This document shows positions 1-34,552 of a DNA stretch of 64,000 bases, in pieces; position 1 is the stretch's first letter; every line of letters starts with the position of its first letter. The notes under the pieces were generated by a model that did no database searches, was not told the DNA's origin, and saw only the letters and a list, made by a program, of their open reading frames with translations. The position numbers were made by a program, and so were the translations under genes. This DNA comes from Octopus vulgaris (Eukaryota): NCBI GenBank assembly GCA_951406725.2, contig OX597823.1, positions 67,394,001 through 67,458,000 of the forward strand. Reading direction: 5' to 3'.

Positions 1-120
1 TAAAAATACCTATATTGCTAGAACTAAAAGCTAAAATGCTCTAACGCTGTAGTCAATCACATAATTGTATACATATATTCTGACAGGGACTGTTATCGTC
101 CGAAAACACCGTACGAGAAT

Positions 121-173
121 TCCTTGTACTGACCGGTCAGTTTCGGCAATTTCCGTTGTCTTATCAGTAAGGA
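121..173 (-). ncRNA. Minimal type-I hammerhead ribozyme motif (degenerate)
   Basis: Reverse strand reads TCCTTA-CTGATAA-GACAA cggaaa TTGCC-GAA-ACTGACCGGTCAGT-A-CAAGGA: stem I TCCTT/AAGGA, palindromic stem III, GUA triplet; core G8 is A. Confidence 0.65.
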
Positions 174-2454
174 GTGACTCGACTTCGGCAGATTCCGGAC
201 TTCTCTGTCAGTGTGTATGTTTTTATCATAGAAATCTGTGAATGATTTAGCTACTCACCAATGTATATACAGAAAATTAATATAGACATCAGTTTGCAAT
301 GTTTCATCACAAAGGAAAAGTATAATTGTCACTAAATGTGACTAGAGTGTTAGAAACGCCTACATTGCTAGAAATAAGAGCTAAAATGTTCTAATGCTGT
401 AATCAAAGCACATAACTGAATACAGTCGTAAAATATAGATAGAATGAATATATATTTGTATGTATGTATGTATGCCTACATATACATATAGTATTTTGGG
501 AAAAGGATAGATGGATAGATGGGAGAAGAAAAAAATGATATGCAACTCTGATCATAGACTAGAAATTCTGTGTTAAAAGAAAGCAAGTTATTTAACAAGA
601 TGGAAATGGAAAAAAAAGCTTGAAAAACCAGATTTTATTATGCTTGTGTTTCCTCAATATATATTGATTGCTTTGTTGAAATGTTTTAAGTGGTACCAAT
701 TGTGTATTGATTTCTCTTATACGAGTGCTAAAAACATCAGACTTTATTTGCGTTTAGTCATGAATGCATGGATAGATATATTTATAAAACTTGGGTGAAA
801 CACAGAATAAGCTAACAACATAATATATATTTTCTACGATTATTTGACGCGACCTTTGGGCTGTTGTTTTTATTCATTTATTTCTTCATTTATTACCTTT
901 GAATATCAGGTTTAACTAAGTCTCAACTCAGACAAATTATATGTCTGTGGCTCTAAATTTCGCAAATATATCTCTATATAGAAATGATGAAACTGTGAGT
1001 GTATAATTTTTTTTTTTTTAAATTTGCAGCTTCGAAGTTTCACGATTCTGTACTAAAGTTCAGCGTGTATCTATGCAGGTTGAATGATCACACAAAAAAG
1101 GTTATACTCAAATTACGACGACGGAATGAATCATCAGCTTTTCAGAATTAAATAAACTTTACTCCATTATTTGAGTAGTCTCGTTCGTATGCATTTCGGA
1201 ATTTATATCTCTGTGTGTTTGTGTATGTGTGTGTGTGTGCGTGTGTGTGTGTGTGTGTGCCGTCTTTAGAAGTTTGTTTCTAGTTACAGATCGTATTATA
1301 GTCATTTCCCATATGTGTACGAATCAGTGGTCTTTTTCTGTAAGTTGCATTGGGAGTTTTCTGAACTATGACGTTAATGTATGTCCTATGTAATCTAATA
1401 TCATCATACATAGAAAGAAATACTCCGAGGAAGAAACTACTAGAGGTTTGTTTGGAGATGGTGGAAGGGTTTTGATTAAAATGTAGCTTTCTCAACTTCC
1501 TCACCACTTAACATTTATTCCGCTGCTTGAATTTTCTATTATCATAAATTTTACTACTTTCATGATGGCAATTCAGATAAGATCGGGGACATACTTCAAG
1601 AATAGCTACATATAGCTAGACTGTTATTTTTTCTTATGTTTTGGTTCATACATAACTGCATAGATGCGTGTCTGGATAATACTTTTTAGTGTTTATGCAT
1701 GTACATATACATGTATGTGTATGCAAGTATACACACACACAAATATATATATATATGCGTACTAGTGTATGTATGTATGTACTTATGTATGTATATGGGG
1801 GCACATAAGTTCAGAATCTGCAGAAAACAATTCTCAAACAGCAAAGTTAGTATTAAACATTGCCTTTTATTGAAGTTGAATAAAACATTATGTGTGTGTG
1901 TGTCTGTATGTCTGCGTATGTGTTTTTTTTTTTTTTTTGTATCATTGCAATTCAGAAATCCTTTTAGCATTTGAATGATATATAAAACATATATTTTCAT
2001 GGAATTGTTTTGCATATTTTTTATATTTTTCTCATCTTAATCCTCATTACATCTTTGTTTATCATCGCAGTATGCAAAATCTGACATTGCAGCATACTTT
2101 ATAAAAAATATATTCCTGAACCACAAACCTCAGTACACTAAACTGACCTTATTACAACAAACATTGTTGATCAAGGATATTGATCAATATACGTTTGGTC
2201 TACAAGTCGGCCGTATTAAAGAATTCTTGTTATTTAGATCTTTTCAAAATCTCTCCCTCCCCTCAAATATCAAATTCTGTTGGATTTGATTTTTGCTCTT
2301 TATTCGCTTGATTATGTTCATCATAAACAGAGCTATATCACGCCACACACACACACACACCATAGGCGATTGCTGACCATAATAGAAATAGTAGCTAAAT
2401 CTCCCCCAATTCACGATCTCCTGTTTTATACGACAAGACTCATAAGATAATGTA

Positions 2455-2704
2455 AAAAAAAATAAATGCACCCTTTTAAAGCCTAGCCAGGCTCATTGGC
2501 CAGGTTTCTCGGTTTCTATGGCATATATGTTACCCAGCATATATGTTACCCAGCGTTACTCATTTTTGCAAGCTGAGTGAACTGGAGCAACGTGAAATGG
2601 AGTGTTTTACTCAAGAACACAACGCGTCGCCTGGTCTAGGAATCGAAACCACAATCTTACGATCATGATTTTGGCACCCAAACCACAAAGCCACGCGCCT
2701 CCAC
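2455..2704 (-). mobile_element. SINE with family D-type body
   Basis: 14-bp TSD cataagataatgta; the reverse-complement body ttgtgttcttgag..tttcacgttgctccagttcactcagc is shared with 18018. Confidence 0.85.
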
Positions 2705-2989
2705 CATAAGATAATGTACTGAAACATATATATTTCTAAAACAACGGGATGATCAATGCAAGAACACATTTAATCATTGGCCCTCTGATTAACATTTACG
2801 TGGGGCTAAACATCAAATGGCTTTATATTTGGTTAACACACAGCCATATAACATTAGCGCATTTACTTGATATTGATAATGTACAGCCGGTCCAAGTGTA
2901 TAACACTATTTAGTTTTGTCCTTCTGCATTCTACGTTGTGCGTTGAAACTTTATCCTGATATCGATTGTTTTTTCGAGATGATAACGAT

Positions 2990-3371
2990 GGAAGCGCAAT
3001 GGCCCAGTGGTTAGGGCAGCGGACTCGCGGTCGTAGGATCGCGGTTTCGATTCTCAGACCGGGCGTTGTGAGTGTTTATTGAGCGAAAACACCTAAAAGC
3101 ACCACGAGGCTCCGGCAGGGATGGTGGTGATCCCTGCTGTACTCTTTCACCACAACTTTCTCTCACTCTTACTTCCTGTTTCTGTTGTACCTGTATTTCA
3201 AAGGGCCGGCCTTGTCACTCTCTGTGTCACGCTGAATATCCCCGAGAACTGCGTTAAGGGTACACGTGTCTGTGGAGTGCTCAGCCACTTACACGTTAAT
3301 TTCACGAGCAGGCTGTTCCATTGATCGGATCAACCGGAACCCTTGTCGTCGTAACCGACGGAGTGCTTCCA
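2990..3371 (+). mobile_element. tRNA-derived SINE family B (resembles octopus OR-type SINEs)
   Basis: A box tggcccagtggttag and B box ggtttcgattc; near-identical to 55677-56048. Confidence 0.9.
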
Positions 3372-3637
3372 CAAATACTAACGATAAAGTATAAGATAAA
3401 TCCGGCAAATAGTTTTTAAATACAACAGTTTTAGTGAAGTTATAACTCATAACAATGTTGCAAATTGTCACTTTATCTAGAAGTCCATTGAGTCACATTT
3501 TTTCTGGACCGGAGTAAACAGTTTGTAATTTGGGGTAACTTACTTTTAATGGAAGTTTTCGTTTATGAATTGTTTAATCAATGTTTGATATATGTATATA
3601 TATATTTATATATAAAGTATTATGTTATATTTTTCAG

Positions 3638-3682
3638 AATTTTCGAAAAGAAACTCTATCTATGACAGGGCGAGTGAAAACA
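3638..3682 (+). CDS. nAChR-like / chemotactile-receptor-like subunit, 45-nt exon (beta2/loop D): NFRKETLSMTGRVKT
   Basis: ttttcag acceptor and gtaagt donor; exactly 45 nt, phase 0/0, the canonical size of the nAChR exon encoding DEKNQxLTTNxWLxx; joins in frame to KWND of the next exon. Not in the ORF track. Confidence 0.8.
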
Positions 3683-4654
3683 GTAAGTATTTTATATAAA
3701 CATATCTCACTCCAAAAATATAACAGCATGTTATTTTTGAGAATATAACGGCTTTAAAATAGTTAAACATTTATTAGTGTCCCTTTTCTTGAATTTATAT
3801 TTCAAAAGGTATATTGTTTTATTTTGAAATGAACATAAAATCAGTTTTCACAGAGAAGAGACACGTTCGGCACATTTGACAATAACATATTATAGTGATA
3901 GAGGTTTTGATTGTGTCGTAAAACCAACATTGTACTTCTGTACCATGTTTAGAGGAAACGTTTATGTGGTCCCTACTACTTTCTAAGCTAAATCGCATTA
4001 TTTTTTTATTACTCTGAGATGTTCCTACTCTGCGAGTCTCGTAGAAATATCACAGTTTAAATAAATATAGATAGCATTAAGAAAGAAAGATGATCTACGT
4101 TTCGGTTTACAGGCTCTTTAACGTGAAAGAGAAGAAAGAGTTCTGTGTGGTGTAGTTAAAATGTATCTATACAGGCTATTCGAAAAAAAAACTGTGTTGG
4201 TTGTACTGTTAACTCACAACGGAAACATCTCAACACCTGATCGTACAACACTTGACCTTATCTCTGATACGTTCTTAAGACTAAAGATCAATAAAGTAAA
4301 ATCCGCAACTACACAAAACCGATGAGGATTATTTCTCCAAAGTAATCCCGTTTTTAGCTATAGCATTTCCCTTATAGAATATGAACCTACTAATGAGGTA
4401 ATTGTCTAAATATATAACGAAATAGTTGTAATTACTATGGCAAAAAATATCTTGTAATTCGCAACCCAAATAAAAATTTCAGACAAGAAATTATTAAAAA
4501 AACGAAACAATTGAGTAACATTATACATTCGTACAGCCTCATAAATGGGCAATTAACATTAACATGTCTATATAATTTATGCATTTTAACAAGTTCGTAT
4601 GTGATTATAAAACGTATGGTAACATATTCTACGGTTTTACTTTCACTGCATGAA

Positions 4655-4892
4655 AGGGCGGCGAGCTGGCGGAATCGTTAGCACGCCGAGCGAAATGATT
4701 AGCGGTATTTCGTCTGCCGTTACGTTCTGAGTTCAAATTCCGCCGAGGTCGACTTTGCCTTTCATCCTTTCGGGGTCGATAAATTAAGTACCAGTTACGC
4801 ACTGGGGTCGATGTAATCGACTTAATCCGTTTGTCTGTCCTTATTTGTCCTCTCTGTGTTTAGCCCCTTGTGGGTAGTAAAGAAATAGGTAT
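4655..4892 (+). mobile_element. tRNA-derived SINE family A (Meta/Sauria-like central domain), full length
   Basis: ggcggcgagctggc..gagttcaaattcc..gcctttcatcctttcggggtcgataaattaagtaccag; 17-bp TSD tacttt(c/t)actgcatgaa. Confidence 0.9.
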
Positions 4893-16876: not shown

Positions 16877-17295
16877 TCTTTTTTCTTTACTGCCCACAAG
16901 GGGCTACGCACAGAGAGGACAAACAAGAACAGACAAACGGATTAAGTCGATTACATCGACCCCAGTGCGTAACTGGTACCTATTTAATTGACCCCGAAAG
17001 GAAGAAAGGCAAAGTCGGCCTCGGCGGAATTTGAACTCACAACGTAGCGGCAGACGAAATACCTATTTCTTTACTTCCCACAAGGGGCTAAACACAGAGA
17101 GGACAAACAAGGACAGACAAAGGGATGAAGTCGATTATATCGACCTCAGTGCGTAACTAGTACTTATTTAAACGACCCCGAAAGGATGAAAGGCAAAGTC
17201 GATCTCGGCGAATTTGAACTCAGAACGTAACGGCAGACGAAATACTGCTAATCATTTCGCCCGGCGTGCTAACGATTCTGCTAGCTTGCCGCCTT
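16877..17295 (-). mobile_element. Family A SINE tandem dimer
   Basis: Two head-to-tail copies within one degenerate TSD, cg(t/c)cc(t/c)tc(t/c)agtgttt. Confidence 0.85.
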
Positions 17296-23168: not shown

Positions 23169-24290
23169 AAGTAAACAGAAATATTGAAGGATTTAATAGA
23201 ATTAGAGACAGAGTCTTCAGATCCAGAAATTAAATTTGCAAAGGTTGCGTTGTGTTAAATTCTAACAAATTTAATCAAACGTGATCTTATTTCAGCTAGG
23301 TCACTTAAAATTAAAAGAATATTAATAAAACAGAATATTGCTGTCACGAGGATTATATGCATTTACTACTTCATATATATCAGGCTCAATTCTAGACATA
23401 ATTAATCGCTGGTATTTTAGTCCTCTTTGAAGGTGACTTAATATCAGTAATGGTTCAAGTCTAGTTAATGTACAGTAATCTATTATTCTTTAATGTTAAT
23501 GAAATATATGGCGACACGAAATCATATGGACTTACAAAATATATAAACAAATTTTTCCAAGTACTGTCACACCTTTCCTTGACACCTTTCTTTTCTTGAA
23601 CATCTTTTTGACAAGGTTCATCACCTTTGAACTTTTATGTAATACTCCAACTGAAGTTTACTGTCTCCTTCCACCAAAAAATTTTTTTCAATAACGCGTC
23701 ATCCGCATTAAAGCCTTCTTTGTGAAACACTGCGCTAGAAACCTGTCTCGGGAGTGTCCTACTCCAAAAAGTAAACCACTCGTCTCATAACTCACTATTA
23801 TCCAGAGTTATTCTCTTCAACACATGAAATTACTTTTGCTAATACAGACCATGTTCCGCTTTAGCAACAGGAAATGTCACACGCAATACCAAATATACAA
23901 AATACTAGCTGAATTTCGAAAATTTTATTTTAACCAGTGTAATATGAATTCGGTCATAAACAGATTCCAAGCCAATGCTATAGAGAATTCTTTTGAAATC
24001 TTTTTCTTTTTTCTATTTTCATTTTATTTTACTTTTTTTTTTACCTAACTGAATTTTATTCAAATTCAGTTTTTGCAAACTCAATTTTTAAAAATCTAGT
24101 TTTGTTTCAATTCCCATTTGAAATTATATCAATAACTTCCTGAAACATTCACATGTGCTGATTCCTCCTCTTCAAAGCATTCAGCTTTCATGTTTTCTTC
24201 GTAATAAACAAAAAATTATTTTTAAAACATTAAATTGAAAATAAAAGAAATCATATGTGTATGAATATAATTTTTGTTCTCATGTTTCAG

Positions 24291-24820
24291 AGCCGGTGAA
24301 GTGAAGCCGATAGGAGACAGAGCAAAAGAAGATCTCATCCGGTTAGAATATACAGGGATGGTTCACTGGGATGTTTCTCTAACTTTCTCAACACATTGTG
24401 ATATAGATATCACATATTACCCATTCGACACCCAACGCTGTACACTTGAACTGGGAGAATGGACGTACACACGTAAAGAAATTAATTTCACTACACACTC
24501 CAAAGGGATCGTGTTAGATTCCTACAAAGACAACGGGGAGTGGAATATTATCGGAACTTTCGCTCAACCGAAACAATACGGGGCGGAGTATATGCAGCTT
24601 CACTTCGGCCTTGTGATGAAAAGAAAGTCTCTTTACTATATACTGAACGTTATAGTACCACTTGTTCTCATCTCAATTTTGTGTGTAATAAGCTTTCTCA
24701 TCCCATTGGATGCCGGAGAGAGGGTCTCTTACTCAATCGCGGTCTTGCTATCACTTGCCGTTTTCCTAACTGTAGTCAGTGCAAACATGCCATCTACGTC
24801 AAAATACGTCTCTGTTTTAG
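24291..24820 (+). CDS. Same gene, 530-nt exon: Cys-loop, loops B and C, M1 and M2
   Basis: tttcag acceptor and gtaagt donor; C-x13-C loop CDIDITYYPFDTQRC, GEWTY, NGEW, M1 YYILNVIVPLVLISILCVISFLIP, M2 GERVSYSIAVLLSLAVFLTVVSANMP; phases match both neighbours. Confidence 0.97.
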
Positions 24821-25164
24821 GTAAGTAAATCCTTAAATATCTATTCTTTTATTCTTTTACCTATTTCAGTCAATGAACAATGTGGGGACACCGTCTTGAA
24901 GTGTTTAGTCAAGTAAATGTCTCCAGTATTTATTTTAAGCGTCATACTTATTCTGACGGATTCTTTGTCCTGGGCAATATATTACAGGGACCTAAACCAA
25001 TCAGTGCTGGTTGTGAACCGGTGGCAGGCATACATTTTCATACGAAGACATGTGCACGCACATACATTATATGTGTTTGTTATGTATGTATGTATGTATG
25101 TATGTATGTATGTATGTATGTATGTATGTATGTATGTATGTATGTATGCATGTATATATCTGTT

Positions 25165-30716: not shown

Positions 30717-30871
30717 TAGTTATTCTTATCAAAATTTAAGATTTTAAAGTTGTTGCGAAATGCTTAACATGTTCTCTCTCTTTCTCTCTCTCCCCCTGTC
30801 TTTCTCTCTCCCTCTTTCTCACTGTCTCTCTCTGTTTTTTTTTTTCTCACTTTCATTTCTATCTATTGCAG

Positions 30872-31389
30872 CGGTATACCTGGTTACGGTAATGATTATC
30901 AGTGCACTCACCTGTGTCATGACAATCCTTGTAATCAGAGTGTACCATCGGAACGATCACGAGTGTCCTATACCTTTGTGGTTGCAGAAATTTGTCGGCA
31001 GCTTTGCACCTCTTCTGTCCGGAAGTAGCAGTGGCATCATTGTGAGCCAACACAGTTCCCCTGAGCACGTAGCCGAAACTGGTTGGAGCCGAACTAACAC
31101 CGCTGACGATATACACGAACGACTGGAATGCTGGGGAGAAGAGCCGGGAGCTCGAGACTTTGCGAATCGACGCCGTGGCGAATCTCGTGTGTTCCAGACA
31201 ACGCGTATGAGCATGAGGCGTAAGAAGTCACTTAAACAGGATTGTATCCGCGATGGCGACCAAACTCGCCGTCCGAATTCATGGAAGAATGTGGCGCGTG
31301 CTATTGATAGATTTTGTTTCCGGTTAACACTTTTCATTGTTCTTCTCACTAACCTAATGATGATGATTGTTCTCGGTGCTTTCAGTTGA
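30872..31389 (+). CDS. Same gene, terminal coding exon: M3, MX, intracellular loop, M4 and stop
   Basis: Long CT tract plus ttgcag acceptor; G+CG gives Ala in frame; M3 VYLVTVMIISALTCVMTILVIRVYHR, MX PIPLWLQKFV, pre-M4 WKNVARAIDRFCF, TGA at 31387-31389. AATAAA near 31522 is a candidate poly(A) signal. Confidence 0.95.

Positions 31390-31799: not shown

Positions 31800-34552
<2,753 letters not shown>

Follow-up and report, generated by a model that had tools for sequence, protein, structure and literature searches.

The whole stretch of Octopus vulgaris DNA that was analysed, 64,000 nucleotides long and hereafter called the window, is AT-rich and rich in microsatellites, with a G+C content of 0.32 in positions 1-2000. 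Exons of a nicotinic acetylcholine receptor-like gene were found on the forward strand at 24271-24828 and 30748-31389, and the exon at 24298-24825 was 99% identical to an Octopus sinensis acetylcholine receptor subunit named alpha-3-like. Moreover, two head-to-tail copies of a 184-nt unit were located at 16882-17245, with similar pieces recurring elsewhere in the window, and we take this unit to resemble a dispersed octopus SINE. The repeat considered below occupies the left end of the window, some 24 kb before the first acetylcholine receptor-like exon, and its features are collected in Table 1.

Table 1. Features of the repeat at positions 1-424 of the window.
Feature	Positions	Strand	Remarks
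Second box copy	1-73	-	82% match to 351-424; cut by the window edge
3' arm of the rod (in the hammerhead sense)	71-120	+	Holds the weak plus motif (80-115); core CUGACAG
Type I hammerhead	121-173	-	Helix I 168-173/121-126, CUGANGA box 167-161, helix II 160-156/149-145, GAAA 144-141, helix III 141-128
14-nt perfect palindrome (helix III)	128-141		Hairpin -2.8, self-duplex -25.9 kcal/mol
5' arm of the rod	174-220	-	Pairs with 71-120; holds the weak minus motif (176-211); covers part of the least covered region (181-240)
AT-rich spacer of the unit	243-350	-	Depth steps down from 331-360 to 241-270
Upstream partial box copy and start of the arm	351-424	-	82% match to 1-73; depth peak at 361-390; single-copy beyond ~424

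To begin with, the direct repeat put forward in the preliminary description, in which positions 1-72 return at 351-424, was confirmed. Positions 1-73 aligned with 351-424 at 82.4% over 74 columns (E 8e-15), the alignment score being 93 against a maximum of 36 for 2000 random pieces of the window, and the period of the repeat was 350. No third copy of this box was found elsewhere in the 64 kb window, which shows ~1.2 units and a single hammerhead; the criterion used for a retrozyme has been a pair of adjacent units with a hammerhead in each (bioRxiv 10.64898/2026.07.22.740005). No stop-free stretch above 58 codons was detected in 1-424. Furthermore, the RNA of the unit was strongly self-paired, with z-scores of the linear fold of -3.4 (minus strand) and -4.0 (plus strand), which none of 100 shuffles equalled, and z-scores of -3.0 and -3.7 for the circular fold. 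The unit is therefore non-coding, AT-rich and highly self-paired, as retrozymes are, and its 350 nt lie within the 150-450 bp of retrozyme repeat units, as do the distances between joined parts in other copies that are given below.

The centre of the unit is occupied by a hammerhead of type I topology on the minus strand, where its elements follow one another in the order helix I, CUGANGA box, helix II, GAAA, helix III, GUA and helix I, with the cut predicted between positions 127 and 126, after GUA. A motif of this class arose in 8 out of 5000 shuffles of 1-424. The hammerhead with a palindromic stem III had already been reported on this strand, and its layout and palindrome stood up to analysis. 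Three departures from the canonical form had gone unnoticed: the core G8 reads A (position 162), and pairing is lost at the second position of helix II (159) and at the first of helix I (126), so that the copy in the window does not carry the intact hammerhead of an active retrozyme copy. Moreover, the hammerhead fold was disfavoured in this copy (-5.3 vs. -17.3 kcal/mol), with probabilities of 0 for helix II and 0.1 for helix III, and the copy is predicted to be inactive or nearly so. A search of the whole window with Rfam gave no hit at the gathering score, hence no ribozyme, and none of the 15 weak hits in positions 1-500 belonged to a ribozyme family. A match to CUGANGA..CGAAA at 33052 showed no hammerhead fold and was rejected.

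All or part of the stretch was found in 20 public sequencing runs, which came from 10 studies and carried five species labels. Four runs out of 24, under three species labels, were compared with positions 1-900 at 80% identity, namely X1, X10 and X9 (DNA-type) and X21 (guessed to be RNA). The contigs matching at an identity of at least 80% numbered 2376, 2512, 1168 and 160, respectively, and a high-copy family ending at ~424 was present in the three DNA-type runs, under three species labels. Beyond ~424 the depth was at the single-copy level in all the DNA runs, which sets the right boundary of the element, and over the flank it was flat (42.5 over 541-810 in X10). The locus itself was recovered in X1, where one contig matched 129-343 without any difference; another species label (X9) yielded a contig covering 129-345 that had 3 differences. 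In a second species label, a piece over 395-900 held the flank together with no more than the final 30 bases of the element, its first 318 letters being unmatched, so the locus may be rearranged in that species.

Within the unit, the depth was uneven. It peaked in the box at 361-390, where it was ~20-30 times that of the hammerhead region, and fell on both sides in the three DNA-type runs, with positions 181-240 as the least covered part. Compared with single-copy sequence, the rough depth ratios were ~1800-4800 for the box and ~70-210 for the hammerhead, summed depth not being copy number. Among the best 24 of 878 loose ends, the sequence to the left of 321 was (TA)n in 32 contigs (X10), and that to the left of 273 was a microsatellite in 3 contigs (X21). 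The best 15 of 190 joints included jumps back of 351, 343, 329 and 328, which place spacer, box and arm in the same head-to-tail order in other copies, and joints skipping either arm, which point to subfamilies with a common box and hammerhead and with different arms. No contig spanning the whole unit appeared among the best 32 of 6804 pieces, the contigs being of insufficient length to bridge two hammerheads. In run X21, canonical hammerhead letters were read at 159 and 162 in 6 contigs and 181-240 had no cover; its depth profile followed that of the DNA runs, and its joints also stood in DNA. Two single contigs of X10 joined parts of the unit on opposite strands (201-396 and 309-415), like inverted truncated copies of the Penelope type. 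Finally, relatives sought by a pattern scan numbered 0 and 0 in viral contigs, 0 in prokaryote genomes and 1 in metagenomes. This last match (L001, 435-482) consisted of CTGATGAG..GAAAC with the same palindrome, after a transposase-like frame on a GC-rich metagenome contig; no helix I or II was seen by eye, and it was taken as chance.

The three departures of the hammerhead in the window were largely absent from its sister copies. In X1, the canonical letter made up 6023 of 6305 of the depth at 162, 6028 of 6305 at 159 and 2035 of 2233 at 126; these shares amounted to ~91-96% in X1 and X10 and were similar in X9. With the majority letters, a full canonical core was obtained, with helices I, II and III at 6/6, 5/5 and 6/6, so that at the level of the family the unit does hold a canonical type I hammerhead. 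Thus, the hammerhead of the family looks intact, and it is the copy in the window that has decayed. The three changes are of the A-for-G or C-for-U type, and at two of these sites A-to-I editing could in principle restore a G reading. A rescue of the decayed hammerhead by RNA editing was nevertheless rejected, because the canonical letters stand in the DNA of the sister copies.

The palindrome that forms helix III is weak as a hairpin and strong between two molecules. When two unchanged copies of 121-173 were folded together, a double-hammerhead layout was obtained (-37.1 vs. -12.0 per monomer). A palindromic helix III and cleavage as a dimer are usual for animal type I hammerheads, in which this stem has 1-2 bp, and the octopus helix III, with 5-6 bp, is longer than that (PMC4209133). 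Some copies miss one base at 134, in the loop of the palindrome (depth of 471 out of 3126 in X1), so that their palindrome would no longer be perfectly self-complementary.

On either side of the hammerhead, positions 56-120 and 174-242 formed an imperfect inverted repeat, whose score was reached by 31 out of 5000 shuffles (4285 out of 5000 in the control). The preliminary description had placed a weaker hammerhead motif in each flank, one on the plus strand (~80-115) and the other on the minus strand (~176-212). Both of them turned out to be the arms of this single inverted repeat, pairing with each other with a probability of ~1.0. In particular, the probability of pairing across the rod was 0.998-1.0 for CUGACAG with its complement and, on the plus strand, ~0.9 for the GAA boxes, and the plus motif's own helix II had a probability of 0.001 vs. 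~1.0 for the rod. Both motifs read CUGACAG instead of CUGANGA and therefore miss G8 and A9. In the plus motif, CTGA, a 4-bp hairpin and GAAA are indeed present at 80-105 as described, with 2 mismatches in the CUGANGA box and with best helices I and III of 1 bp each. The minus motif is not a valid hammerhead, as it has no helix II, GAAG in place of GAAA and 2 core mismatches. A further proposal, that the minus arm is a tandem duplicate of the central hammerhead, was rejected, since the score of 38 was reached in 158 out of 5000 shuffles and in 162 out of 5000 for the strand control.

The plus motif is uncommon by chance. It arose in 16 out of 5000 shuffles with Watson-Crick pairs and in 52 out of 5000 with G-U pairs allowed, and the other 63,570 bases of the window contained 0 and 2 motifs of this type, respectively; bare CTGA..GAA pairs have a chance mean of 1.6 per 424 bases. 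The shape of this motif, rarer than chance and unexplained by the rod alone, leaves room for a relic. Among the best 24 of 878 loose ends, CTGACAG was kept in the plus arm of sister contigs, with majorities of 41, 46 and 31 contigs in three runs for the loose ends at position 415, and no subfamily arm showed CUGANGA, with CTGACAG, CTGATAG or CTAACAA in its place. Position 99 was C in 45% (X1), 42% (X10) and 67% (X9) of the depth. This C is unpaired in the rod, breaks helix II of the plus motif in the register of the preliminary description and pairs only in a shifted register, which leaves the box one base short.

The variation among sister copies bears on the rod as well. Majority letters at 79, 94, 213 and 215 improved it, raising the outer helix (71-86/205-220) from 13/16 to 16/16 Watson-Crick pairs, with some cross-mapping between the arms being possible for these letters. 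Those at 57, 238 and 241 weakened its outermost 5-bp helix, and the rod supported by the family is thus ~71-220. A total of 15 variant positions fell in 56-242 among the best 40 of 133 variant rows, of which 7 restored a core letter or pair, 5 were neutral or undetermined and 3 weakened the outermost 5-bp helix; the change at 113 merely shifts a bulge. Positions 118-120, whose family letters bear on a loop 1-loop 2 contact, have no entry in these 40 rows. Overall, the best 40 of 133 variant rows and the best 24 of 878 loose ends revealed only one valid core in the family, which is the outcome that the preliminary description had named as counting against its proposal. Its hammerheads in both polarities were accordingly not borne out, the sole plus candidate having no G8, A9, helix I or helix III and being locked in the predicted rod. 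An ambisense viroid-like RNA would carry a valid ribozyme in both polarities and have no counterpart in genomic DNA; the repeat had one valid core and thousands of contigs in DNA-type runs, joined to unique flank. The ambisense, viroid-like reading of the repeat is therefore not supported.

The other part of the preliminary proposal, a retrozyme-like nature, fared better and gained support at the level of the family from the 350-nt period, the high copy number, the canonical type I core of the sister copies and the strong self-pairing. Our preferred reading, with a probability of about 0.72, is that the copy in the window, decayed and 5'-truncated, belongs to a high-copy octopus repeat whose 350-nt unit bears a single type I hammerhead on the minus strand and which would be a non-autonomous non-LTR retrozyme moved by Penelope-like elements. 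The described route of retrozymes comprises transcription of consecutive units, hammerhead cleavage, ligation to a circle by RtcB and reinsertion of the Penelope type (PMC7229834). In the octopus, minus-sense transcription of intact copies would run through successive units, and every hammerhead would cleave after GUA, either by itself or linked to another through the palindromic helix III as a double hammerhead. The rod, by extending helix I, may keep the freshly cut ends close to each other until they are ligated, with RtcB as the probable ligase, into a circle of ~350 nt. The RNA would then be copied from the box end into microsatellite-rich sites by a Penelope reverse transcriptase-endonuclease, and insertion would leave mostly 5'-truncated pieces together with some partial tandems like the copy in the window. 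The weak motifs would be arm sequence pairing with itself.

Penelope-type insertions are characterized by 5' truncation, partial tandems, a tail of 30-40 bp and microsatellite targets (PMC8557442). Truncation at the 5' side, a short tail and insertion into microsatellites are compatible with the octopus depth profile and with two rows among the best 24 of 878 loose ends. The same data suggest a 3' end shortly past the box, insertion at microsatellites and 5' truncation of most copies, again with summed depth not read as copy number. Position 424 is likely the 5'-truncation point in the sense of the hammerhead, and many sister copies appear to end inside the spacer, beside microsatellites, which is likely the 3' tail. 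The box of 60-70 nt within 331-400 is a candidate 3' recognition site common to a Penelope partner or to further subfamilies. It should be reminded that cleavage occurred in only 1 out of 9 cloned dimers of other elements (bioRxiv 10.64898/2026.07.22.740005), so that an intact-looking core does not guarantee activity.

Regarding the alternatives, the repeat might instead stem from an autonomous Penelope-like element, as a 5'-truncated partial tandem of its terminal repeat (pLTR) region, the coding body lying in other copies or further left than the window reaches. We consider this unlikely. The depth of the box, in thousands of relative units, and the microsatellite ends agree with it, and the left side of the repeat lies outside the window. 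Moreover, pLTRs carry hammerheads and form partial tandems and inversions (PMC4209133; PMC8557442), and Penelope-like elements make up 6.83% of Octopus vulgaris, in 190 families (PMC13282606). Type I topology, a palindromic helix III suited to dimers, the apparent 5' truncation, the partial tandem and what appear to be microsatellite-adjacent ends are all likenesses between the octopus repeat and Penelope pLTR hammerheads and copies (PMC4209133; PMC8557442; bioRxiv 10.64898/2026.07.22.740005). However, the boxes recur at a period of 350 and enclose no reading frame, and single-copy sequence follows on the right. Neither a reverse transcriptase nor a GIY-YIG motif turned up in the window when motif patterns were applied, and short contigs from other copies also connect the box with the arm and the hammerhead with the spacer. 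In addition, animal Penelope hammerheads are mostly minimal, with 4-5 bp in helix I and 7-8 bp in helix II (PMC4209133), unlike the octopus hammerhead with its helices of canonical type (6 and 5 bp).

A second alternative sees in the arm motifs the remains of two hammerheads that once faced each other on opposite strands of a rod-shaped ambisense RNA; the family would now depend on a third hammerhead at the tip of the hairpin. In ribozyme-bearing viroids the ribozymes face each other in this way, CUGA box opposite CUGA box and GAA opposite GAA. The octopus rod shows the same pairing of like with like for its CUGA and GAA boxes. In addition, GAAA in the plus motif is preceded by a clean hairpin of 4 bp, which is rare by chance, and the minus strand of a different subfamily arm also contains CCGAAA (6 contigs with a loose end at 173, among the best 24 of 878). 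We judge this origin improbable all the same. A CUGA..GAA on one arm of an inverted repeat generates the other, so the two motifs amount to one observation and not two. Furthermore, the best 24 of 878 loose ends lacked CUGANGA in any subfamily arm, the C at 99 in 42-67% of the depth of the three DNA-type runs breaks helix II in the register first described, and the arm resembles the central hammerhead no better than the strand control (158 vs. 162 of 5000). Opposite-strand hammerheads 100-700 bp apart are also known from Penelope-related copies, in Schistosoma (PMC4209133), and even a true relic need not be viroid-derived.

The bolder version of this history, in which the octopus family stems from a rod-shaped RNA whose facing hammerheads survive as the arms, with the third at the hairpin tip, and in which some subfamily other than those observed is still intact in both polarities, is very doubtful. 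If true, animals would have a retrozyme whose ribozymes are ambisense, and Penelope-borne retrozymes would be connected with viroid-like replicons. Least probable is that the plus motif works as a non-canonical ribozyme, which would let both polarities of the RNA cleave themselves and make replication by a symmetric rolling circle possible: the hairpin-plus-GAAA motif is rare, the plus arm at 61-90 is covered about as well as the hammerhead and negative-polarity retrozyme RNAs are mentioned in a review (PMC7761336), but G8 and A9 are both missing, the natural core variant in print is U3-A8 and not C3-A8 (PMC4209133), there is no helix I or III, helix II has a probability of 0.001 vs. ~1.0 for the rod, and the element exists as dispersed genomic DNA.

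Compared with known systems, the octopus repeat comes close to the metazoan non-LTR retrozymes of Cervera and de la Pena (2020), whose units have 220-240 nt in coral, 350-390 nt in mussel and 330/350 nt in axolotl (PMC7229834). It shares with them a unit of ~350 nt, one type I hammerhead, an AT-rich, non-coding and strongly self-paired sequence and many genomic copies. Unlike them, it has a cephalopod host, a 14-nt palindromic helix III and a hammerhead at the tip of a long inverted-repeat rod; most of its copies appear truncated. The size range, the rod-like pairing and the two facing hammerhead-like boxes recall viroid-like circular RNAs (Avsunviroidae and delta-like agents; PMC7761336). In contrast to these, the octopus repeat has only one valid core, is present as repeated genomic DNA in several octopus species labels and gives no sign of RNA-to-RNA replication.

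Full-text searches (hammerhead ribozyme with octopus, and wider) found no octopus retrozyme in print; the supplement of PMC7229834 lay outside these searches and may list one. The word 'ribozyme' did not occur in the available text or supplement of the O. vulgaris repeat annotation (PMC13282606), and one supplement file of PMC4209133 contained motifs from Lottia and Crassostrea and none from cephalopods.

The copy in the window is a fossil, and the claim of ribozymes in both polarities fails its defining test. The repeat is real and is likely a decayed copy of an octopus addition to the known non-LTR retrozymes. With this family, which is abundant and common to at least three species labels, ribozyme-made circular RNAs would extend to cephalopods. 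Its long palindromic helix III provides a simple system in which to compare monomer and dimer cleavage, and the very abundant box of 60-70 nt is an obvious place to seek the 3' end of the Penelope partner. Finally, vertebrate elements have been argued to derive from Penelope pLTRs, and a Penelope origin of retrozymes outside vertebrates was named as untested in the same source (bioRxiv 10.64898/2026.07.22.740005); the octopus family offers a test of that proposed origin.
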